A program made the position numbers and the translations under genes. Shown here in pieces: positions 3,999 to 28,841 of a stretch of DNA of 64,000 bases. The notes beneath the pieces are model-generated. The model was given only the letters and a program-made list of their open reading frames with translations, was not told the origin of the DNA and searched no databases. The stretch comes from an uncultured Nitrososphaerales archaeon. Lineage in GTDB: Archaea; Thermoproteota; Nitrososphaeria; Nitrososphaerales; Nitrososphaeraceae. Numbering within the stretch: the stretch's first letter is position 1; every line of letters starts with the position of its first letter. Location: the NCBI GenBank assembly GCA_963695855.1, contig CAVOHZ010000003.1, positions 64,001 through 128,000 on the forward strand. Direction: 5' to 3'.

Positions 3999-4031
3999 AG
4001 TAATACCGATAGCGGTTCTAAAATATGGGTC
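3999..4031 (-). repeat. family B att-like repeat
   Basis: AGTAATACCGATAGCGGTTCTAAAATATGGGTC matches 9643, 13187, 14567 and 18739. Confidence 0.85.
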
Positions 4032-4113
4032 TTAGATATGTTAATACAGAGGATATAACATTTACGGATTAACGTTATATAGAAATAATGATAAAAGTTG
4101 AATTGTACTACTT

Positions 4114-5229
4114 TCACAATTTTTTAATAGTATTTAATAATACCTTTTTCTCAACTGGTTTTATCAATATTTGTTCTTTGGCTAAACCAGGAACTATAGT
4201 TAATATTTCATCTGATATATCTAAAACAGTTATAAAAAGAATTTTAATTGTTGGGTCTATAGCTTTTATTTGTTGGTGTAATTGAAATCCATTCAAACCT
4301 TTCATTCGGATATCAAGTGTCACTAGTAAATCATCAAAATTTGAAAGGGCTTTGATATAATTCAATGCATCAGTAGAGTCTGTAAATGTAATTGTTTCAT
4401 AACCACTTTCATTTAAAAATGATTTAAAAGTAAGAAGTATTTCTGGGTCATCATCGACTAAAATAATTTTTTTGTTATTATTTTTTTGTTGAATAAAAAA
4501 TAAATCTTTTTTATTTTTAGTTTCTATAAAATCATCAGTAGAGTAACCTAAGCATTTATTCCTAAGAGCGGGTTTAATACTACTATCATCAATCAACGAC
4601 AATTTAACTCTTTTTATACTATATGTGGAATAGACAAAAGTTTCAGTTATTTTACATCCACCATTATTTATGAAATTGTAATCGTTAGCAATATTAGAAA
4701 AAGATTTTAGTATTCTATAACAATTATCTCCTATAATTATTTGATTAGCGATAGAATTAGGAGAAGAAGAAGAATTTATCTTCGAACAGAGGTTTACAGT
4801 TGACCCGAATAAATCTATCTGGCTATAATCTCCCGTTAATGCTAAATCTACAGTACCATAATCCATACTAATTCTATAGCTGAATAGAGGCAAGTTTTGC
4901 TTTGATAATTCTTGATTAACAAGATGACGGACATCTAAGATTTCCAAACCACATTCAATAACTTCTCTAAATGCTTTTTCGTTTTTATTATCAGATGTTT
5001 TAGGAAAATATAATAATAAAGAATCACCCATATTTTTAATAACTTTCCCACCATAACTTTTAACTATTTCTGATATTGAATTTATAAATTTAGAATAATA
5101 GATTCTAATATGTTCTAAATTGTCTATGGTAATTGTATTTTTAGTTGAATCTACTAAATCAATAAAAACTACACAACTCTTTACTGTATCACCAGAAAAT
5201 CTAATTTCTTTTGAAGAAAAATTTTTCAT
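4114..5229 (-). CDS. class III adenylate/guanylate cyclase domain fused to a C-terminal receiver domain
   Basis: FIDLVDST, VIKNMGD, DLFGSTVNLCSK; REC motifs IILVDDD, LDIRM..LNG, FIT, KP. Confidence 0.9.
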   Translation of the reverse strand: MKNFSSKEIRFSGDTVKSCVVFIDLVDSTKNTITIDNLEHIRIYYSKFINSISEIVKSYGGKVIKNMGDSLLLYFPKTSDNKNEKAFREVIECGLEILDVRHLVNQELSKQNLPLFSYRISMDYGTVDLALTGDYSQIDLFGSTVNLCSKINSSSSPNSIANQIIIGDNCYRILKSFSNIANDYNFINNGGCKITETFVYSTYSIKRVKLSLIDDSSIKPALRNKCLGYSTDDFIETKNKKDLFFIQQKNNNKKIILVDDDPEILLTFKSFLNESGYETITFTDSTDALNYIKALSNFDDLLVTLDIRMKGLNGFQLHQQIKAIDPTIKILFITVLDISDEILTIVPGLAKEQILIKPVEKKVLLNTIKKL

Positions 5230-7336: not shown

Positions 7337-8263
7337 GGTAATACCTACATAGTTGGAGCAGATTTTATCATTAATTTTGATAATTCATAGAAAATATCCT
7401 TCTCCCTGTTATTGAATCTGAATTCTATCTCTTTTAGATATACATGAAAATACTGTTTAGGTACTCCCCTGTAATGATACAACCATGTCTTGGCATAACT
7501 CCAGAATCCTTCAATTCTATTAATATGGGTATCTTCTCTTACATATTCATCTCTTCCATGTGCAACGACTTGATGTTTTCCAATCATATTCAACATTGCA
7601 TATGCAGTATGGTCATCAGAATAGTACAACGATCCTTTCTTGGTATATTGTTTTATCAAGGGAATAAGTGTCTCATGTTTTCTATCAGATACTGGAAATG
7701 TAATAACAATTCCATTTCTCTTGTAGATACCAAATACCAGATTTTTGTGCTCAATTACACCCCATCCTCTCTTGCCACCTTTTCTATAACCACCAAATAA
7801 CGCTTCATCAATTTCAATCTCACCAGATAACTTTAATTCATGTAGTTGTTGTAGCGATTTATCATATATCGTTTGTCTAAATAATCGAAATGTTCTTTCT
7901 ATTGTTGATAGATCACATGATACATAAAATCTAATTCTATATGCAGGTACTCCTAATGTAAATAGATAAAGTAAGTGTATGATATTGCTAAGCGATGTTC
8001 GTATCTGTCCGAGATATGTACCTGTAAATTCACTAAAATTATATCTGCAACGTTTACAGCCATACCTATTTGATTTCAGATAATATAGAAGTCTATACCT
8101 ACATCTAGGACATATTCTTTTTCCATTCCATCTAAGATTACGAAAATATATACTACTTTTCTTATCGCTTGATGCTAGGTCTATTGGATCATATTTACGC
8201 ACAAATATGTATAAAATAACATATCATGTGTTTATTTTTTGCTCCAAATGTACAGGTATTACC
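7337..8263 (-). mobile_element. complete IS1595-family insertion sequence (927 bp)
   Basis: 24-bp imperfect TIRs GGTAATACCT..A.A.TTGGAGCA; 8-bp TSD TTACTTTA at 7329-7336 and 8264-8271. Confidence 0.95.
7345..8202 (-). CDS. IS1595/ISXO2-like transposase
   Basis: Zn finger CPRC..CKRC; EIDE, YSDD, HIN.IEGFW, YL.E..FRFN.R. Confidence 0.95.
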   Translation of the reverse strand: MRKYDPIDLASSDKKSSIYFRNLRWNGKRICPRCRYRLLYYLKSNRYGCKRCRYNFSEFTGTYLGQIRTSLSNIIHLLYLFTLGVPAYRIRFYVSCDLSTIERTFRLFRQTIYDKSLQQLHELKLSGEIEIDEALFGGYRKGGKRGWGVIEHKNLVFGIYKRNGIVITFPVSDRKHETLIPLIKQYTKKGSLYYSDDHTAYAMLNMIGKHQVVAHGRDEYVREDTHINRIEGFWSYAKTWLYHYRGVPKQYFHVYLKEIEFRFNNREKDIFYELSKLMIKSAPTM

Positions 8264-8678: not shown

Positions 8679-9020
8679 TCATTTCTTTAAAAAATCTATT
8701 GTAGATTTAGTATCTTGAAAGATTTTTGATTCTTTTAATATAAGATTATTGAAATCAGATGAAATATCAAGAGGAGTATTGTTAAGGGTGATTATACATT
8801 TGATACCAGCCTTGTTTGCTGCTTCTACTCCCAAAGGACCGTTTTCTACTACTATGCATTCAGATGGTTTTAGATTGATTTTCTGTAATGCTTTAACAAA
8901 TGGTGTAGAATGTGGTTTCCCCTCATCTATATCATCAGCAGAGATTAGAATATCAAAATTTTTCAATCCAATCAATTTATCAATAGTTGTTTCTATCTCA
9001 TTCTTTTCTCTGACACTCAA
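8679..9020 (-). pseudogene. HAD-superfamily hydrolase, C-terminal fragment
   Basis: GKP..TPF, C.VVEN.P.GVEAA..AG are present; the N-terminal DxD motif is missing. Confidence 0.75.
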
Positions 9021-9224
9021 AAATCAATACTATACAACAATTATATATTTAACCGTATACAGTACACAAAATTTGATAATTGTTTCATCTATTGATCTAA
9101 ATAAGATAGTAAATTCAATATTTATTCTGTTTACTGTTAAATATTTATTTATTAGGTTTATTTATCTTACATCTTTTTAATTATCTTTGTTGAAAATGAA
9201 TAAAATAAAGCTTTTTCCTATAAG

Positions 9225-9574
9225 TCAACTTAATAACTTTAACACATTGCTAATAATTTGTGCATGATCTGCTTCTACTTCTGTAGTAATAAGCATAAAT
9301 GCTCATCATCTAATGGAATAGTAATTCGTTTAATTTTTTCATATTCTGTCATTGAATATTTTCCTTTTCCTGTTTTTGGAGATAAGAACTTTCTCAATCC
9401 CCATCCTTCTAAAGCTTGTAAATTTGATTTTCTTGTTTCTTCATTAGTTAGGATATTTTTTACTCCTTCTTTTTGACCACCATGTTTTATATTTCCAGAT
9501 ACACCACATATTCATGCAAATCTTACTTTAGAATCCATCTGTAAAATAGATCTACATAAATTATCATAGTCCAT
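9225..9574 (-). pseudogene. thaumarchaeal roadblock-like (DUF6659-type) protein pseudogene
   Basis: MDYDNLCRSILQMDSKVRFA*ICGVSG...GKGKYSMTEYEKIKRITIPL; internal TGA plus a 3' frameshift. Confidence 0.65.
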
Positions 9575-9642
9575 ATATTAAATATTCAAAAATACAAATA
9601 TTAATAGTTTTTAGATACTTATTAATTTAGCGAATACACAAC

Positions 9643-9687
9643 GGGCCCGTCGGGAGTAACACCGATAGCGGTGCTAAAATAAGAGTC
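9643..9687 (-). repeat. family B att-like repeat with tRNA 3'-end-like part
   Basis: GGGCCCGTCGGGAGTAACACCGATAGCGGTGCTAAAATAAGAGTC; 40/45 identical to 13187-13231. Confidence 0.9.
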
Positions 9688-9856
9688 CAATTTTATATAA
9701 TATATATGTAAATTTAAGATTATATTGTATGTTTATAGTTATAGAAATTAGAATTCTAAATAAAATAGAATAAAACTCGAATATAATAGTGATTGCAAAA
9801 TGTTATAGAAAATAGTTATCTCCGTTTATAGCCAATCGCTAAAAAGGAATTTGAAT

Positions 9857-10501
9857 TTATTGTATTATCAAAACAGGTTTACTAATATGATTCATTATTT
9901 TTCTGACATCACTAAATAATGAGCTAAACCATGAATCTATATGATAAGTTAACATAACGACCAAATCATAGCTATTATTATTAATTTCATTCACTATTTC
10001 GTCAACTACATTACCAGTTAGAAATTTATAAGAAATTTTATTTTGACATCCAGCTTCTTGACATTTCTTTATTTTTTCTTCCATAGCATCTATTACATCA
10101 CCTTTGATATTTCTATGAAACTCTTTTTGATTATCCTTTTCTGATTTCTCATATGAGCCTTCTAAGGAAACATTTCCAAATTTTTCAAAATCGTGTAATA
10201 TACGAAGTATAATTAATTCTGCTCCAGTGGAATTGGATAAAGAGACAGCATAATTAAGTGCTTTATTTGATATATCTTTTCCATCATCAGTAACTAGTAT
10301 TTTCTTAAAAGAAGGAAGGTTATCTTTTGAAATTGAATAATCTTGTAATTCCCTGGATTTATTTCCTAATTGTGATTGTTGTTCTTCTTGTTCTATTTCT
10401 GGTGTAACACTTCCGTCAGGATGAATTGATTCACTTACTTCCATATCTAAAAGATTTTCTTTAGCATCTGAAGATATAGAAGGAGCTTTATCACTACTCA
10501 T
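9857..10501 (-). CDS. universal stress protein (USP)
   Basis: KKILVTDDG...S.KAL.YA..L; G...DEIV, DLVVM, KPVLII. Confidence 0.9.
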   Translation of the reverse strand: MSSDKAPSISSDAKENLLDMEVSESIHPDGSVTPEIEQEEQQSQLGNKSRELQDYSISKDNLPSFKKILVTDDGKDISNKALNYAVSLSNSTGAELIILRILHDFEKFGNVSLEGSYEKSEKDNQKEFHRNIKGDVIDAMEEKIKKCQEAGCQNKISYKFLTGNVVDEIVNEINNNSYDLVVMLTYHIDSWFSSLFSDVRKIMNHISKPVLIIQ

Positions 10502-13186: not shown

Positions 13187-13231
13187 GGGTCCGTCGGGAG
13201 TAATACCGATAGCGATGTGAAAATAAGAGTC
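13187..13231 (-). repeat. family B att-like repeat with tRNA 3'-end-like part
   Basis: GGGTCCGTCGGGAGTAATACCGATAGCGATGTGAAAATAAGAGTC. Confidence 0.9.
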
Positions 13232-14566: not shown

Positions 14567-14611
14567 TGCCGCGGAGGAGGTAATACCGATAGAGGTGCAA
14601 AAATACGAGTC
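14567..14611 (-). repeat. family B att-like repeat carrying a different tRNA-like 3' end
   Basis: TGCCGCGGAGGAG followed by GTAATACCGATAGAGGTGCAAAAATACGAGTC. Confidence 0.85.
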
Positions 14612-16400: not shown

Positions 16401-16507
16401 TAGATTAATCTATTCCTTTATATTTTTGTTAATATATTTATATGAACGAAAAAAATAGACATGGAGTTAATTATTAATATATTATTCAATACTGAATGCA
16501 ATTTTTA

Positions 16508-17676
16508 TTAATTTAATAATCTATTTACAGTATTTGTAAATAGCTTTCTATCAACAGGCTTTCTCATTATTTGTTCTTTTGATATACCAGGAACTACACT
16601 CAACAATTCGTCTAATATATCCAAAGCTGTTACAAACATAATCTTAATTGTTGGGTCTATAGCTTTTATTTGCTGATGTAATTGAATTCCATTCAAATCT
16701 TTCATTTTGATATCAAGTATTAATAATAAATCATTAAAATTTGAGAGGTCTTTGATATAATTCAATGCATTAGAAGGGTCTGTAAAAGAAATTATTTCAT
16801 AACCATTATCCTTTAAAAATGATTCAAAAGTAAAAAGTATATCCGGTTCATCATCAACTAAAATGATTCTTCTTTTGTTTTGTTATTGTTATTGTTATTG
16901 TTATTGTTATTGTTATTGTTATTGTTTTTTTTATGAAAAAAAGATGATTCTTTTTCTTTACTTTTAGTTTCTATAAAATCCTCAACAGGGGAACAGAACA
17001 ATTTCTTGCTAAAAGAAGAATTTATAGTACTAATATCATCAATCGACAATGATTTGTTAACTTTTTTTATACTGTATGTAGAGTATCTAAATTTTTCATT
17101 TATCTTATATTCACCATTATTTATAAAATTATAATTGTTAGCAATATTAGAAAAAGATTTTAATATCCTATAACAATTGTCTCCAATAATTATCTCATTA
17201 GGAATAGACAGTGAAGAAGAATTAATCTCTGAACAAATATTTATAGTTGAACCAAATAAATCTATCTGGCTATAATCACCAACTAAAGCTAAATCTAGAA
17301 GACCATAATCCATACTAATTCTATAGCTAAATGGGGGAAGATGCTGCTTGGACAATTCTTGATTAACAACATATCGCTCATCTAAGATTTTCAACCCGCA
17401 TTCAATCACTTCTCTAAAAGCGTTTTCGTTTTTAGTATCAGATGCCTTTGGAAAATAGAATAATAAACAATCACCAATATTTTTAATAACTTTCCCACCA
17501 TAATTTTTAACTATTTCTGATATTGAATTTATAAATTTAGAATAATAGATTCTAATATGTTCTGAATTGTCTATGGTAATTGTATTTTGAGTAGAATCTA
17601 CCAAATCAATAAAAACTACACAACTCTTTATTGAATCCCCTGAAAATCTTATTTGTTTTGAAGAAAAGTTTTTCAT
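16508..17676 (-). pseudogene. cyclase-REC paralog of 4114-5229, split by a 1-bp frameshift
   Basis: The other frame continues KRRIILVDDEPDILFTF into ORF 16508-16765; the break is at the end of the (AACAAT)n tract. Confidence 0.85.
16882..16926 (-). repeat. (AACAAT)7 AAC microsatellite encoding poly-Asn15
   Basis: Counted directly in the sequence. Confidence 0.95.
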
Positions 17677-17843: not shown

Positions 17844-18470
17844 TTAATGACTAGTAGTAGTATTTCCCTCTTTATTTTGGCTATTGACTGATTGTACTAC
17901 TGATGTTATATAATCAGTATTTGTTTTTGTCAAAACCTTCACATTATCACGTGTTTGTTCAAGTGCTGTGTTATATACTTTCATATTTGATGCTAGAGTG
18001 TTATTTATAAGATTAGTGGCATTTAACAGGTAACTCGTAAAGTTATTTACCATTACCGCATTATTCTCAGCAATTCTTTGTGGATTAAAAAAATCCCATA
18101 ATCTATTGAAGTTTACATTACTATTATTATCTGCTTGTTGTGATTGAAAAGAGCTTACTACTTGTTTTTGTGCTTCAATAAAGTCAGAAGCAATATCTTT
18201 TACAGTTTGGATAGTTTTTTCTTGATATTCAGCAATACGTTGTGTATATTTTGGAATTTCCCGACTAGCTTCATCTGTACTTCTTTTTATATTATGTAGA
18301 GTGTTATCTAGAGTCTTGTTTATTGCATCTTGTTGTTGATTTAAGGTGTTATTTGTTCTTTCATTGAAATTATTATTGTCTTTGTTAAATTTAGTTGTAT
18401 TTTTTTCATTAAATTCTGGTTCATTTACAGCTATATTTTCGTTTATTTTTACTTCTTTTTTTGCTGACAT
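17844..18470 (-). CDS. N/Q-rich helical hypothetical protein (phasin-like)
   Basis: Close paralog of 24584-25189; likely start MSAKKE. Confidence 0.75.
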   Translation of the reverse strand: MSAKKEVKINENIAVNEPEFNEKNTTKFNKDNNNFNERTNNTLNQQQDAINKTLDNTLHNIKRSTDEASREIPKYTQRIAEYQEKTIQTVKDIASDFIEAQKQVVSSFQSQQADNNSNVNFNRLWDFFNPQRIAENNAVMVNNFTSYLLNATNLINNTLASNMKVYNTALEQTRDNVKVLTKTNTDYITSVVQSVNSQNKEGNTTTSH

Positions 18471-18738
18471 AATTATAGTTACATTACTAATGTTATATAA
18501 ACTCATGTAATGATGTCTTTTTAATAGTCATATTTACATAGGTATATATAATTTATTTATTTATTTATATAATTGAAGGTAATATAATTTATAATACAGC
18601 AATAAAAAGCAGAATCATGTAATTCTTACTATTTGATTCATACGATTCAGACATCTTATAAATTTAATAATTCATGATAAAACGCTGGTAGGTAAGTAAG
18701 TATTGATATTGATATAAAAGATGAAATATGTCTAGCAT

Positions 18739-18774
18739 GGACTAATGCTTATAGTGGTACTAAAATAAGAGTCT
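18739..18774 (-). repeat. family B att-like repeat (degenerate)
   Basis: 29/36 identical to the 9652-9687 copy. Confidence 0.75.
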
Positions 18775-18903
18775 AAGGTATGGTAATAAAGAAGATAATA
18801 CCTAGGATTTACTTTTCATATTTTTAAAATAGATATTAATGTACAGTTACTATAAAAATTAATATTGTGTATGTTTTTCAGTATGTCGAAAAATATTAAA
18901 TTA

Positions 18904-19909: not shown

Positions 19910-21317
19910 ATGCCCAGAATTATATCTCCCAATGAGAAGTCATCTGTAATTGGAGATTGGCTTGAAGGAAAAACCAGGGAAAAAATTGCTTTAAAACATA
20001 ATATTGAAAGTGGAACTGTTTATAATATTGTTCAAGAATGGAGCAATAAACTTGGTATTGAAAAAACAGATTTATTGAGAGAATTAGCGGTAAATTTAAA
20101 CAAAAATGGATTGACTGTAAATGATTGTGCTAAAGGATTTAGAATGGTGATGATTTTTAAAAAATATAGAATAAAAGAAGATGAACTAGAAGATGGAATT
20201 ACTTATTTTTTAAAGGAAATTTACTTGAAATGTCAAGAACACAATTTAACAATTGAAAAAGTCTTTATGTATATTTATGATATCGTTAATTTTTCGAATG
20301 AACTACCATTATCTCAAATACCTCAATTTCTTAAAGAGAAGAAAAAGGAAAAAGAAGAATTAGAGATTTCTATCCAAAATTTGTATCAAAAAATAAATGA
20401 ACTCGAAGAAACTCAAAAAGAAAAAAGGCAAGAAATACAAAGATTGTCTGAAATTACAAACAAATTGTCCAGTAGTTATAGATTATTTACCATATTAAAA
20501 TACAGATTGGGCCAATATGGTATAAGTATGGAAAATTTAGATCAATTTGCAAATTGTGTAGTTGGAATATCAAAGGAAAATTATAGTGTTACCAAAGTTC
20601 TAGAATTAATAGGAGATTATGATAATTTACTAAACTATATACAACTTTATAAAAATGAAGTAGAAGTAAAGAGAAATGAATTGAATTTATTGAATCAAGA
20701 GATAAACTCTCATAAAGGATTGCTAGATTCTTATAGGATCAAATCAGATATCGCCGAAAATTTGGAAAGAATGAATTTTGGGATCAATGAATTACGGGTT
20801 TTATATGATACTTTGATGGAAATTGGTAGAGAAAACAATACTGAAAATAAAACTTTTGAACAAATAAAAAAAATTCTTTGATGATCTCAAAAGTTATGAT
20901 GAAATACTAGGATCACGAAATGAAAAAGATAGGTTAAAAAATGAAATTAAAAATTTAGAAATACAGTTAATAAAAGAAAAAGAAAGATATAATTCATATC
21001 CAAAAGTGATGAAGAGCATAGAAAGATTATCACATGCAGGAATTTCTGAAAATGATATTTTAACAATAGATAAACTTGTATCGATGAGTGGTACAAATCA
21101 TTATCGTCTGTACAAGGATAAACGTAGAAATAAACAAAATTTGATTGATGATTTACAAAAATATGAAAATTTAAAGTTAGCCATAAAAAATCTTGAAGAT
21201 AAAAGAAAGAAAATAAATTCAAAAGATGGGAAAAAGACAGGATATCAAGAACAATTACATCAGAAACAAAAAAGAAAGAACAAATCATCGAAAGTTAAAG
21301 ATACAATTGAAGAATAA
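19910..21317 (+). pseudogene. N-terminal HTH plus long coiled-coil protein, frameshifted at an A8 run (20866-20873)
   Basis: WL.G.TR..IA....I..GTVYNIV.EW is HTH-like; the +1 frame continues FFDDLKSYDE... into ORF 21006-21317. Confidence 0.7.
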
Positions 21318-22117: not shown

Positions 22118-23536
22118 TTGGCTAATGGACTAGATATCTTTATTTCATATAAGCGCGGAGAAGGGGATAATGCGGCCAGAGAGATAGAGAATTACCTTAC
22201 TCACAAAAAAAATTATTCAGTATTTAGAGATGTTGACAGGATAGATGGAGAAGAAGACTGGAAGCAGAAAATTATAAGATCAATAAAAAAATCAGATATT
22301 TTCATACTAGTATTAACTCCTTTTGCTTTATCAAGTGTAGAAGTACAGAAGGAGGTAAGAGAGGCCCAGAGATGGAAAAAAAGAATTCTTCCATGCAAAC
22401 TAGATACTATACATATCGAGGAACTGAAATGGAATCTGGGAAAATTAACTATAATCGAGTATTCTGAAAGAAATATTTCTGCTCTCTTGCTATCCATCGA
22501 TAATTCAATCGACACTTTTTTATCTGAAAAAAGAAAACAGTTAGTAAAAAAAGGAATCTCGACAGCTCTATCGATAGTAGCAATAGGATTGGTTACGTAT
22601 ATTTTACTGGGTTATTTTTTAAATCCACAAATAGAGATCAGTTACGAGTCTAATCTTAATATTATAATAGGAACAGATTATGCCCAAATGTTTGTAAATC
22701 TTTCCAGACCTTTTGGTATATCAGTAGATACCTTAGATAACGTGTATGTCGCTGACACCGGAAACAATAGAATTCAAAAGTTTACATCTGATGGTAACTT
22801 TATTAAAAAATGGGGAAGACTTGGTACAGATCCAGGTAAATTCTCCAGACCTAACGGTATAGCAGTAGATACCTCAGGTAACGTGTATGTCGCTGACACC
22901 GACAACAATAGAATTCAAAAGTTTACATCTGATGGTAACTTTATTAAAAAATGGGGCGGAGAGGGTACAGATCCAGGCAAATTCTCCTTTCCTAACGGTA
23001 TATCAGTAGATACCTCAGGTAACGTGTATGTCGCTGACACCTACAACAACAGAATTGAAAAGTTTACATCTGATGGTAACTTTATTAAAAAATGGGGAAG
23101 ACTTGGTACAGATCCAGGCAAATTCTCCAGACCTTCCGGTATAGCAGTAGATACCTCAGGTAACGTGTATGTCGCTGACACCGGGAACAATAGAATTGAA
23201 AAGTTTACATCTGATGGTAACTTTATTAAAAAATGGGGAGAACTTGGTAAAGACATATTTGAATTCTCCTTTCCTTCCGATATAGCAGTAGATACCTCAG
23301 GTAACGTGTATGTTGCAGACACCGACAACAATAGAATTCAAAAGTTTACATCTGATGGTAACTTTATTAAAAAATGGGGCGGAGAGGGTACAGATCTAGA
23401 CAAATTCTCAGGTCCTTCCGGTATATCAGTAGATACCTCAGGTAACGTGTATGTCGCTGACACCTACAACAACAGAATTGAAAAGTTTGCATCTGATGCG
23501 ATATCTATACGTAATAACATCATTGATAGACCTTAA
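22118..23536 (+). CDS. TIR domain + single TM + 6x NHL beta-propeller protein
   Basis: DIFISYKR, VF.D, W...I...I..S..FI.VL, S..V.KE; TM at about aa 146-168; six P.GI.VD..GNVYVADT.NNRI.KF repeats. Confidence 0.92.
   Translation: MANGLDIFISYKRGEGDNAAREIENYLTHKKNYSVFRDVDRIDGEEDWKQKIIRSIKKSDIFILVLTPFALSSVEVQKEVREAQRWKKRILPCKLDTIHIEELKWNLGKLTIIEYSERNISALLLSIDNSIDTFLSEKRKQLVKKGISTALSIVAIGLVTYILLGYFLNPQIEISYESNLNIIIGTDYAQMFVNLSRPFGISVDTLDNVYVADTGNNRIQKFTSDGNFIKKWGRLGTDPGKFSRPNGIAVDTSGNVYVADTDNNRIQKFTSDGNFIKKWGGEGTDPGKFSFPNGISVDTSGNVYVADTYNNRIEKFTSDGNFIKKWGRLGTDPGKFSRPSGIAVDTSGNVYVADTGNNRIEKFTSDGNFIKKWGELGKDIFEFSFPSDIAVDTSGNVYVADTDNNRIQKFTSDGNFIKKWGGEGTDLDKFSGPSGISVDTSGNVYVADTYNNRIEKFASDAISIRNNIIDRP
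22700..23497 (+). repeat. tandem 141-bp NHL-coding repeats (5 full + 1 partial), near-identical DNA
   Basis: Unit starts at 22700, 22841, 22982, 23123, 23264, 23405. Confidence 0.95.
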
Positions 23537-23585
23537 CAGATACTTTATAATCTCTAGACTGAATCTTGTAGTTCTGTAATAACTA

Positions 23586-24240
23586 TACTGCCTAACATAA
23601 TTTCGCTAATCTATTGTTCTCATTAGATATTTTACAATATTCAGATTGAATCTTGTTGTTCTGTAATAACAACAAATATTGTATTTTAGATCGTCAAACA
23701 TAGGATAATAAGTAGAAAGTATATGATACTTACCCTGTCTCCAGCATTCTTCTACTGCATTAAACTCCGGTGAACCAACAGGAAAGTATTCCAATCTGAT
23801 GGTATTTTTATTTATTTGAATCAAGAAATCGTCTTGTAATCTTTGAACAGTGAGGTGTTGCTCTATCCACAACAATTACAATTTTACCAAATGTTTCTTT
23901 CTGTACATGTTTTAGGCAGTCAACAAATGTACTGCTATTAAATTTATCATATTGTTTGAATAATTGTTTACCATCTAAAGATAAACAACCAAATACAATT
24001 GTTCTTTTACGAGAACCAGTTACTATAAGCACAGGTCTTTTTCCTTTTGAGATCCATTTCTTTCTTTTAACTACATAATCGTATACAAATATTGATTCAT
24101 CCTGTACAAGTACAGTCCAATCAGAATTTAGATTCTCAAGAATCTGTTTTATTCTTTTTTGAATTTCATTTTGTCCTTGCATGATACAGTATTTACAAAT
24201 CTTTTCTGCGGTACTTTAGACTTGAATCCATACACTTGGC
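23586..24240 (-). mobile_element. IS630-family transposase remnant (frameshifted)
   Basis: QDES, VVDRATPH, P..SPEFN.VEECW in two frames. Confidence 0.85.
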
Positions 24241-24583
24241 TTAAATCTAAAATTTGCTTTTATTTATTCTAAAAATAGGAGTAAAAATCCCTCGCAACCC
24301 AACGGACCAGTACTTTTCTCGGGTTCATCCACTTCAATTCTTTTTTATCTATGATCTGTCTCGCTGTCTCTAAAGTGATTCTGCCCTTGATACTGACTTC
24401 TTGGAGTATCCAAATGATAATGATAATATCTAATGAAATGACTTAGAAAATATTGATGAATATATGTAATTGCTAATATATTACCTTCAATTATACAAAT
24501 AAATAGATCATACATACAGAAATATGACTATCCAATGGACATCAGTACATACGTTTGTATATCTTAGTAACGTATATATAATC

Positions 24584-25189
24584 ATGTCAACAAAAGAAGA
24601 AATAAAAAGAAATGAAAATATAGCTGTAAATGAACTAGAATTTAATGAAAAAAATACAACTAAATTTAACAAAGACAACAAGAATTTCAATGAAAGAACA
24701 AATAGAGACTACAATAATACCTTAAATCAACAACAAGATGTAATAAACAAGACACTTGACAACACCTTACATAATATAAAGAGAGCTACTGATGAAGCTA
24801 CACGAGAAATTCCAAAATACACACAACGTATAGCTGAATATCAAGAACAAACTATTCAAACTATAAAAGATATTGCCTCTGACTTTATTGAAGCAGAAAA
24901 AGAAGTAATAAACTCTTTTCAATCACAAGTAGAAAGAAATAGTGGTGTAAACTCCACCGGATTATGGGACTTTTATAATCCACAGAAAATTGTTGAAAAT
25001 CACGCAGTACTGGTGAATAACTTTACAAGTTACCTGTTAAATACCAGCAATCTCATAAATAACGCTCTAGCATCAAATATGAGAGTGTATAAAACAGCAC
25101 TTGAACAAACACGTGAGAATATAAAAGCTTTGGTAAGAACAAATACCAGTTACATAAAATCAGTAGGAGAATCAGTTAATAGACAATGA
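24584..25189 (+). CDS. N/Q-rich helical hypothetical protein (phasin-like); inverted paralog of 17844-18470
   Basis: Near-identical protein; flanking DNA is also conserved. Confidence 0.75.
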   Translation: MSTKEEIKRNENIAVNELEFNEKNTTKFNKDNKNFNERTNRDYNNTLNQQQDVINKTLDNTLHNIKRATDEATREIPKYTQRIAEYQEQTIQTIKDIASDFIEAEKEVINSFQSQVERNSGVNSTGLWDFYNPQKIVENHAVLVNNFTSYLLNTSNLINNALASNMRVYKTALEQTRENIKALVRTNTSYIKSVGESVNRQ

Positions 25190-26329: not shown

Positions 26330-27148
26330 CTTCAAGGTTGGGATTAAAAAACAGATCAAAGAATGGTAGACCACCAGAAATACCACAAGAGATAGTACAC
26401 GAGATAAAAAATGAACTATCTTCCAGCAAACAAGGTGGACTACAAAACAGGTAGAAGATCTGATTGTGAACAAGAGTGGTGGAATCAGATATCATTATAC
26501 ACATATATACAGACTCATGCACAAGTGGGGATTCAAGCAGAAGGTACCAAGAAAGGTACATGTTAATACAGCATCAAAAGAAGAGAAAGAAAATTTTAAA
26601 AAACAGCCAGAACGATTCTGGATAATCTAAAAGATGAATTTACTGCTGTATCGCTTGATGAATGATTCTTTTTCTATGATTCACTTGTAAGAAGAAGAGT
26701 ATGGATAAGAAAAGATGAAAGACCAGTCGTAAAAATTACAGGATCCCATCAGGGATCAGTTCTATTTGGTGCCACAAGTTTAGAAGGAAAAAAGTTATTC
26801 AGACAGTATGACTGGTTTGATGAAAATACCTTTTTACATTACCTAAAACAGATACACAGAAAGTTTCCAAAATGTTATCTGTTTCTTGATAAGGCAAAAC
26901 AGCATTACAGATCAAAAAAGGTACTGAGATATTTTGCTGTCAATAAAGATAGTTTGATTCCAGTTTATCTTCCAACAGCATCTTCTGAATTTATGGTACT
27001 GGAAGAGATATGGCATATAGCCAAGAATGATCTGCTTGTTCTACAATACTATTCATCATTTACAGATTTTAAAAATAAAATATCCACATATTTTAGAACA
27101 AAAAGATTCAATCTGGATATGAGGAATTACTTAGTTGGAGGGGAGTAA
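26330..27148 (+). mobile_element. IS630-family transposase remnant
   Basis: GRPP, YRLMHKWGF..KVPRK.H, LDE, FLDKA..H, YLP..S.E...EE.W in broken frames. Confidence 0.85.
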
Positions 27149-27468: not shown

Positions 27469-27568
27469 ACTAGTTTTTCCCTCTCCTTTTTCTGGTTGTC
27501 TGAGTTGATATCACAACTACTACTGTCTATTTTATTGTACGAATTAGTATTTAATCCCAATTGGTCAG

Positions 27569-27642
27569 TGGGCCTAAAGGGGTTTGAACCCTTGACCTAC
27601 CGGTTATGAGCCGGTCGCTCTGCCAGGCTAAGCTATAGGCCC
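27569..27642 (-). tRNA. tRNA-CAT, most likely tRNA-Ile2 (agmatidine type)
   Basis: GGGCCTA...CCGG-CTCATAA-CCGG...GGTTCAAA...TAGGCCCA cloverleaf; the GGGCC acceptor is Ile-like. Confidence 0.9.
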
Positions 27643-28523: not shown

Positions 28524-28640
28524 ATGTTGATTTAATCCAATTGAGAATAGAAAAACCTTTTGAATTTTATTTTTTATTAAAAGAAGATTTTTCCTATTAA
28601 GAAAAGATTTTATTAGAATCCAAACAAGAAAGTTTTGCAT

Positions 28641-28736
28641 GCTCCGGTGGTGTAGTAGCTAAATATGCTGCATAGTCCGGTCAAGCATTGTGGCCTTTCG
28701 AGTCGCAGATCCCGGGTTCAAATCCCGGCCGGAGCA
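28641..28736 (+). tRNA. tRNA-Glu(TTC) with a 20-nt non-canonical intron in the D-arm
   Basis: GCTCCGG acceptor; GTGGC-CTTTCGA-GTCGC anticodon arm; removing about 28653-28672 gives a 76-nt tRNA. Confidence 0.88.
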
Positions 28737-28841
28737 AGATTTTAGATTAAACCATATTCTCATAATTCGAGCTTTTCAGATTCAATTTCATAGTAGCATT
28801 AATATGCTAATAATTTTAAATCTAGACGTAAGTTAGAGTAC

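Follow-up and report, generated by a model that had tools for sequence, protein, structure and literature searches.

Can the TIR domain of an archaeal protein be coupled, through a single membrane helix, to a sensor on the outside of the cell? The question is raised by one gene in a 64,000-nucleotide (nt) contig stretch from an uncultured Nitrososphaerales archaeon (the window, whose positions are used throughout). This gene, the open reading frame (ORF) at 22118..23536 (+ strand), is delimited here by the ORF list, its sequence, Pfam, and an AlphaFold2 model. An earlier note, made from the letters alone, had proposed that it encodes in order a TIR domain, a basic stretch, one transmembrane (TM) helix, and a six-bladed NHL propeller. 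That order is borne out by Pfam, hydropathy, AlphaFold2, and Foldseek, and the Pfam scores for TIR_2 and NHL are far above chance. The gene encodes a real receptor-like architecture, previously uncharacterised. It is solitary: tblastn found no second copy of TIR or NHL in the window.

The prokaryotic TIR systems described in the available parts of two accounts (PMC11350192; 10.64898/2025.12.03.692087) are operons of TIR genes and intracellular effectors, none with an extracellular sensor. Our survey of the literature, with subscription-only papers and supplementary domain tables outside its coverage, found no description of a prokaryotic TIR-TM-ectodomain protein.

A complete reading frame and a closed propeller

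The ORF extends exactly from 22118 to 23536 and specifies 472 amino acids (aa), from a TTG start to a TAA stop at 23534-23536. The first in-frame ATG occurs only near residue ~190. The TTG is credible as the true start, and is accepted here, because it aligns with the ATG-encoded initiator Met of the nearest relatives (MAKRLNIFISY.., MSERLDIFISY..).

In the carboxyl-terminal part, Pfam finds six NHL stretches (208.8 bits; E 9.6e-64), and Tandem Repeats Finder, the blade listing, and Foldseek together define six blades of 47 aa (141 nt) each at 22703..23500 (+). The repeats have a period of 141 nt (5.6 copies, 88% match) and also one of 423 nt (91%); the array is better described as a three-blade unit duplicated once. 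The whole-protein AlphaFold2 model, built from a 44-sequence alignment, has a mean predicted local distance difference test (pLDDT) score of 90.4 and a predicted template-modelling score (pTM) of 0.62. In this model, as assigned by DSSP, a strand at aa 180-184 provides blade 6 with its missing fourth strand and closes the propeller. The propeller is therefore complete, and is not truncated by the insertion sequence (IS) element downstream. Its fold matches the NHL domains of Thin and TRIM71 (Foldseek E 1e-37 to 1e-33; target-normalised template-modelling score, TMt, 0.93-0.95). Repeats, blade listing, model, and fold matches thus agree on a closed six-bladed NHL propeller.

The blades are nearly identical, with 10-21 differences per 141 nt among blades 1-5. 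Codon differences between blades (5-11 non-synonymous, 2-4 synonymous) are not clearly apart from the neutral expectation and do not permit a claim of diversifying selection. Other identities for the propeller were considered and set aside. Matches to enzymatic propellers (lactonase, streptogramin lyase) are at the level of the repeat only, and far below cutoffs (Vgb(A), 38.8 bits against 600). Membership of PD-T4-6 was likewise rejected, since the NHL repeats alone match the PADLOC model; in the available part of one study (PMC11514479), the PADLOC PD-T4-6 call falls on a kinase-type protein found in every S. thermophilus genome analysed.

An enzyme-like TIR domain

TIR domains serve as adaptors or as enzymes; to which kind does this one belong? 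Pfam places TIR_2 (PF13676) at aa 7-116 (57 bits against a cutoff of 28; E 3.6e-15). The full domain occupies about aa 6-135 (22133..22522, +), as judged from this match, SARM1 matches in the Protein Data Bank (PDB), Foldseek, and modelled secondary structure. The AlphaFold2 models place strands at aa 6-10, 34-37, 61-66, 89-95, and 113-115, with helices between: the five parallel strands alternating with helices of a flavodoxin-like fold. Foldseek assigns a probability of 1.00 against the SARM1 and SPARTA TIRs.

Fold and sequence point to the same neighbours. A separate AlphaFold2 model of aa 1-195 (pLDDT 81) finds its best fold matches in the SARM1, TIR-1, and SPARTA TIRs (E about 1e-7; TMt 0.74-0.78), with the MyD88 TIR just 48th among the Foldseek matches. 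By sequence, a PDB search with the single protein finds no solved relatives other than SARM1 and TIR-1 (E 2.6e-6), and a family profile compared with solved structures retrieves TIR-1 at 1.3e-11 and SARM1 at 5e-10. A search of the ESM Atlas returned just generic TIR clusters, all below 0.9.

The putative catalytic residue is Glu79 (codon GAG, 22352..22354, +), at the start of the helix at aa 74-85. The earlier note had remarked on the Glu of an S..V.KE motif; the motif is S73-V76-K78-E79, and its Glu is indeed kept, being invariant in 13 of 13 aligned family members. The Val three residues ahead (V76) is invariant in the family as well. The family profile lays "vekev" on "VHKEI" of SARM1 and "VHKEL" of TIR-1, so that E79 occupies the position of the VHKE Glu, which we take to be the catalytic Glu of SARM1. 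Alignment and profile also put E79 where the nicotinamide adenine dinucleotide (NAD+)-cleaving class (NADases) carries its catalytic Glu, at the start of helix C. According to the available part of one account (PMC7075850), SARM1 and the TIRs of bacteria, archaea, and plants all depend critically on the conserved Glu between strands C and D for their NADase activity. Judged from sequence and modelled fold, the domain is nearest the enzymatic SARM1/SPARTA type; it has the features of the NAD+-cleaving class and is likely a member of it.

One membrane helix, with the TIR predicted inside

What joins these two domains? The basic stretch EKRKQLVKK (aa 137-145; 22526..22552, +), predicted from Lys/Arg counts to lie on the cytoplasmic side, leads directly into the single TM helix (aa 146-168, GISTALSIVAIGLVTYILLGYFL; 22553..22621, +), which is assigned from hydropathy and from the AlphaFold2 helix. 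This segment holds the sole strong hydrophobic peak, with a Kyte-Doolittle mean of 2.23 over 19 aa (aa 150-168). AlphaFold2 models the last TIR helix, the basic stretch, and the hydrophobic segment as one unbroken helix (aa 120-168). A short linker predicted to be extracellular (aa 169-195; 22622..22702, +) follows; DSSP on the model places within it the strand that closes blade 6, and pLDDT is low at aa 169-179 and 187-192.

Orientation follows from charge. Five Lys or Arg residues are found in the 15 residues before the helix and none in the 15 after, so that one hydrophobic helix of about 20 residues carries a positive cytoplasmic flank, as expected of a single-pass protein with its amino terminus in and its carboxyl terminus out. 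The same bias is found in every TIR-TM protein examined, 19 of 19 (this one and 18 relatives), with Lys/Arg counts of 3-7 ahead of the helix and 0-2 behind it. The positive-inside rule therefore predicts a single-pass protein with its TIR domain in the cytoplasm and its propeller outside. This is the topology that the earlier note had put forward, and it extends to all 18 other proteins. The TIR domain starts at residue 6 (Pfam, AlphaFold2), which leaves no room for a signal peptide.

A reading as a polymorphic or contact-dependent toxin was rejected: the TIR domain is amino-terminal, lacks an export signal, and is predicted to be cytoplasmic. A two-copy complex prediction for aa 1-195, from a 13-sequence alignment, scored 0.00 against a mark of 0.42 and gave no answer either way.

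A constant module with exchanged outer domains

A word-indexed search with aa 1-195 (832 candidates) found, besides the protein itself, just two proteins. One (P0002; 446 aa, 69% identical) is again TIR-TM-NHL, and ends in an aberrant tail after five blades. The other (P0003; 332 aa, 78% identical over 78% of the query) continues after the TM helix into a Big_9/cadherin-like immunoglobulin (Ig) domain. An exhaustive HMMER search of cluster representatives gave 2616 matches at E <= 1e-3, 317 at <= 1e-10, and 13 at <= 1e-30, and added four close kin: two TIR-TM proteins (P0004, with an NHL-repeat ectodomain, and P0005, a near relative of P0003 whose ectodomain has no Pfam match), a fragment (P0006), and P0013. 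Close kin are 67-78% identical to the query in TIR-TM. In P0013, the first 80 of 219 residues are 67% identical to the query TIR up to the catalytic Glu, whereupon an NB-ARC P-loop follows. Either the gene is chimeric or its sequence is an artefact of assembly or of a frameshift.

Genomes were also scanned, one per species for 185,579 species, with two narrow peptide patterns drawn from five close sequences, so that the coverage is of close kin and not of the more distant TIR-TM clade. Of 80 candidate stretches, eight were confirmed as loci and only one was close (68%): L001, from Nitrososphaerales archaeon TH1177. There, a protein of 1517 aa (L001:1349-5902) joins the TIR-TM module to a long NHL array, with ~28 repeats counted by eye. 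A search for longer forms of the module returned none, which is weak evidence since it missed this very form. Further along, the L001 contig holds two ORFs (7790-8230 and 8850-9914): by eye, one has three ricin-lectin-like internal repeats, and the other, which runs off the contig end, has a STAND-type look with a WD40 start.

Searches with the whole protein are dominated by NHL proteins (7863 matches at E <= 1e-10 among 8000 scored). TIR_2 occurs in three of the best 120 such matches: the query, P0002, and P0223, a TIR-TM protein of 690 aa with a longer NHL array. Among the best 150 representatives, a hydrophobic segment follows the TIR domain in 15 of the 52 that have up to 620 aa, and at least one such segment is found in 83 of the 98 that are longer. 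Pfam scans of 29 shorter representatives identified various ectodomains after the TM helix: NHL in P0077, P0107, and P0148; Big_9/cadherin in P0089; PKD in P0129; TPR in P0101; and none that could be recognised in the rest. Scans of 14 long proteins showed 11 to consist of three to seven TIRs, a TM segment, and then WD40 propellers; one ends in an FGE-sulfatase domain, and two contain TIRs only. Judged from these 14, most long matches among P0007-P0153 are proteins with three to seven tandem TIRs, a hydrophobic segment, and carboxyl-terminal WD40 propellers or an FGE-sulfatase domain, a large and apparently uncharacterised class.

A quick maximum-likelihood tree of 64 TIR domains (127 columns), with many forks unresolved, groups the query with six others at 99 in the Shimodaira-Hasegawa-like approximate likelihood-ratio test (SH-aLRT). 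These seven rows comprise four NHL forms, two Ig forms, and one fragment. A second TIR-TM clade (15 rows, SH-aLRT 97) mixes NHL, TPR, PKD, and unassigned ectodomains. In both clades, the Glu and further core TIR positions are invariant, and the NHL label requires at least four changes on the tree. From these mixed ectodomains and repeated changes, the sequences indicate that the TIR-TM module is constant and that the outer domain has been exchanged repeatedly.

Genomic context

The earlier note had spoken of an archaeal island. The host is archaeal by its housekeeping proteins: an archaeal/eukaryal uS2, isopentenyl phosphate kinase, an archaeal GluRS, Bud32, geranylgeranyl reductase, and a nuo operon. 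The "island" part fared less well. The gene is in a low-G+C stretch (24-30%, about 2-22 kb, against 35-38% in the nuo region) that contains an IS1595 element, an IS5-like element, two degenerate IS630 copies, duplicated cyclase genes, and an inverted pair of 220-aa genes bracketing the TIR gene. Composition, IS elements, and duplicated genes make this a variable region; they do not show import from elsewhere.

Immediately beyond the stop codon are two 46-nt direct repeats, 85% identical (23538-23583 and 23625-23670; repeat family D8 and inverted pair I5), the second within the 3' end of an IS630-like gene. This gene, a degenerate IS630-family transposase, lies 70 nt downstream of the TIR gene and tail to tail with it (23606..24182, - strand); both of its overlapping ORFs match DDE_3 in Pfam. 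A related IS630-family (DDE_3) remnant is found at 26600-27148 (+). In L001, too, the TIR gene has an IS630-like neighbour (L001:171-1171, -), whose protein is 90% identical to that of the copy at 26600-27148. Except for this element, the two loci have no neighbour in common.

Upstream of the TIR gene are a 323-aa ORF (19910-20881, +), with an amino-terminal helix-turn-helix (HTH) and a long coiled coil suggested by eye, and a very basic 103-aa ORF (21006-21317, +). Neither has a Pfam or NCBIfam match, and no counterpart of either was found in L001. The 220-aa pair consists of diverged inverted copies of an Asn/Gln-rich gene (17844-18506, -, and 24524-25189, +) set ~6 kb apart, with piecewise nt identities of 73-91%; between them are an HTH_45 gene, the 323-aa gene, the TIR gene, and an IS630 fragment. 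This 220-aa gene has no Pfam match, and in PADLOC weak ZorA-model matches only. A direct duplication (4103-5065 and 16503-17512, 78-85% nt identity) spans two class III nucleotidyl cyclase genes, at 4114-5229 (with a receiver domain) and at 16858-17676; PADLOC gives these weak PycC-like matches only.

Also in the low-G+C region is a conserved element of ~32 nt (4000-4031, 9656-9687, 13200-13231, and 14580-14611, with a weaker copy near 18728-18786), located 40-220 nt downstream of minus-strand genes. It yields four matches at up to three mismatches, against none expected by chance. On the minus strand it contains a short hairpin (CACCG-CUAU-CGGUG), and its fold is not stabler than that of shuffled sequences (z -0.28); possible identities are a 3'-end or terminator element and a small repeat. 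A scan for sigma-70 promoters and terminators gave nothing above shuffles, the sigma-70 model being irrelevant to archaea. Further along, a tRNA-Met (27568-27642) sits between the IS630-like remnant at 26600-27148 and the housekeeping genes that follow. ARAGORN calls a 98-nt tRNA-Arg (CCG) at 28640-28737 (+) that the Rfam tRNA model does not report at its gathering threshold; it may be intron-bearing or a false call.

How might the protein act?

In TIR NADases such as SARM1, plant TIRs, and SPARTA, the monomer is inactive and the active site forms on assembly. This makes ligand-driven clustering the simplest mechanism for the present protein, and it suggests a working model, adopted tentatively as the likeliest though still somewhat short of probable, in which sensor and effector are one protein. 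The TIR domain would lie at the inner membrane face, joined by one continuous helix to the membrane span, and a short linker would hold the rigid six-bladed propeller just outside. Binding of a multivalent or surface-bound ligand by the propeller would gather several copies in the plane of the membrane; their TIR domains could then assemble into an oligomer, form the active site, and cleave NAD+. The outcome might be NAD+ depletion or an ADP-ribose-derived signal, leading to growth arrest or to a stress or defence response. That a membrane tether can restrain a TIR NADase is seen in Dictyostelium TirC (available part of PMC13142454). We infer the enzyme activity and the clustering, as well as the ligand and the outcome; for the ligand, the earlier note had suggested a virus, a glycan, or non-self cells. 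A bolder version, rather doubtful for now, would see an outside-in innate-immune receptor of archaea, a convergent counterpart of the Toll-like receptors: its ectodomain, encoded in the germline and swapped as a cassette (NHL, Ig, PKD, or TPR), would sense a virus particle, an entry apparatus, or a foreign cell surface beneath the surface layer (S-layer), and directly switch on the cytoplasmic TIR NADase. If true, this would be the first TIR system in prokaryotes that detects invaders ahead of their entry.

Several observations weigh against a surface receptor with an NADase output. The family lacks the Trp found ahead of the Glu in SARM1 (DWVHKE), and a conserved E79 does not by itself prove NADase activity. 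The membrane span is predicted from hydropathy and the AlphaFold helix only. The linker is only ~27 residues long and would therefore put the propeller beneath the S-layer, perhaps beyond the reach of large particles. With blade codon differences not clearly apart from the neutral expectation, nothing suggests that a binding face is diversifying. The 18 ORFs of the low-G+C region searched with PADLOC and the 41 searched with Pfam yielded no partner, regulator, or ThsA-like effector. Close kin are very rare (one of the eight confirmed loci in the 185,579 species genomes, with narrow patterns). Finally, given the TTG start and the broken IS copies that surround it, the gene may be decaying.

In one alternative, the protein would generate the signal of a dispersed Thoeris-like pathway, making a cyclic or conjugated ADP-ribose messenger for an effector elsewhere in the genome instead of depleting its own NAD+. 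In the available part of one account (10.64898/2025.12.03.692087), many TIRs are signal producers with very varied effectors, and ThsB-type models do match here, weakly: PADLOC ThsB at E 7.8e-7 and NCBIfam Thoeris type III ThcB4 at E 5.8e-10, both below the family cutoffs (for ThcB4, 38.6 bits against 220). Pfam ThsB_TIR, however, reaches 18.4 bits against a cutoff of 21.2; the same 18 and 41 ORFs include no ThsA-like, SLOG, Macro, or SIR2 effector; and L001 shares no neighbour except the IS630 element, so we regard such a pathway as improbable. We give a similarly low rating to a non-enzymatic surface protein, whose propeller would serve cell-cell or cell-matrix attachment or envelope organisation and whose TIR would be a mere cytoplasmic interaction module as in animal receptors. 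Typical modules of adhesion or interaction include NHL, Ig, cadherin-like, PKD, and TPR domains; NHL repeats and TIR are listed among "eukaryote-like" interaction domains of Thaumarchaeota in the available part of one study (PMC7848895); and near-identical blades look structural. Against adhesion stand the invariance of the Glu and core positions across both TIR-TM clades, and the solved relatives, of which the nearest are enzymes and not adaptor TIRs such as that of MyD88.

The membrane anchor could, alternatively, be a restraint. A tethered toxin would be kept dilute and inactive until a protease of host or invader cut the juxtamembrane region and freed the TIR to self-assemble and deplete NAD+, with the propeller as regulator or decoy. 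There is a parallel in Dictyostelium TirC, a TIR NADase restrained by its membrane tether: as reported in the available part of that study (PMC13142454), it is tolerated with its TM helix and toxic without, and its authors propose proteolytic release. Yet the AlphaFold2 model has one continuous helix from TIR to TM with no exposed loop, and a mere tether leaves the large, conserved, swappable ectodomain unexplained; we consider this less probable still. Least probable is a decaying or idle gene with no current function, which the IS-ridden region brings to mind: the start is TTG, broken copies of IS630 occur 70 nt downstream and at 26600-27148, IS5-like and IS1595 elements are nearby, and the relative P0002 has its aberrant tail. 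The 472-aa frame, however, is intact, with core TIR residues, six blades, and the closing strand all present in a model of pLDDT 90.

Returning to the sensor-effector model, coupling a TIR to an outside propeller through one membrane helix would widen TIR signalling to include the sensing of events at the cell surface. The archaea, whose defence biology is poorly known, would gain a testable receptor-like module. And because the layout recurs with other ectodomains and in multi-TIR/WD40 proteins, it could open up a broad, overlooked class.

Comparison with known systems

Thoeris ThsB and other prokaryotic defence TIRs likewise have a TIR_2-type domain with Glu at the catalytic position, in keeping with the weak ThsB-model matches. 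Membership of Thoeris was nevertheless rejected: the ThsB cutoffs are missed, and no adjacent SIR2/SLOG, Macro, or TM effector is present among the 18 (PADLOC) and 41 (Pfam) ORFs. A form with TM helix and ectodomain is not described for these TIRs in the available parts of PMC11350192 and 10.64898/2025.12.03.692087.

Multi-TIR/TM/WD40 proteins resemble the present one in the order of a death- or immunity-type effector domain, a TM segment, and a repeat or sensor domain. The same order is found in caspase-EACC2 proteins with TM-linked extracellular sensors (CHASE2 architectures, in the available part of PMC8195603). Unlike the present protein, these groups combine WD40, FGE-sulfatase, or CHASE2 domains with a caspase or with three to seven TIRs. 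Related ideas have been described for caspase or STAND proteins that carry extracytoplasmic sensors (PMC8195603 and PMC10907252, in the parts available).

The SARM1/TIR-1 and SPARTA (TIR-APAZ) TIRs are the best matches in both sequence and fold, and share the Glu at the VHKE position. SARM1 and SPARTA TIRs are activated by oligomerisation. Identity to them is just 20-28%, and the SARM1 Trp is missing; the present protein has no ARM/SAM domains and no APAZ/Argonaute partners, and its TIR is amino-terminal and predicted to be anchored in the membrane.

Toll-like receptors, to which the earlier note had likened the protein, also combine a cytoplasmic TIR with one TM helix and an ectodomain built of repeats (layout from the available part of PMC7075850). 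The likeness stands as one of layout, by analogy only. Polarity is reversed, with the TIR starting at residue 6 and no signal peptide; the ectodomain is NHL, and Pfam finds no leucine-rich repeats; and the TIR is nearer the enzymatic class. According to the available part of one account (PMC11350192), the bacterial TIR systems studied to date seem to lack features like those of Toll-like receptors.

Mycobacterium tuberculosis PknD offers a nearer parallel, since it too has a six-bladed NHL ectodomain. Its structure (1rwi, titled "Extracellular domain of Mycobacterium tuberculosis PknD" in the PDB) matches the present propeller at E 3.3e-20 and TMt 0.82, further down the Foldseek list than Thin and TRIM71. 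PknD has a cytoplasmic signalling domain, one TM helix, and a carboxyl-terminal outer propeller. Its output is a kinase, whereas here it would be a TIR domain in an archaeal host, and no kinase family is among the Pfam matches of the protein. By analogy of architecture, then, kinase-TM-NHL in PknD is the closest precedent for TIR-TM-NHL, closer than the Toll-like receptors.

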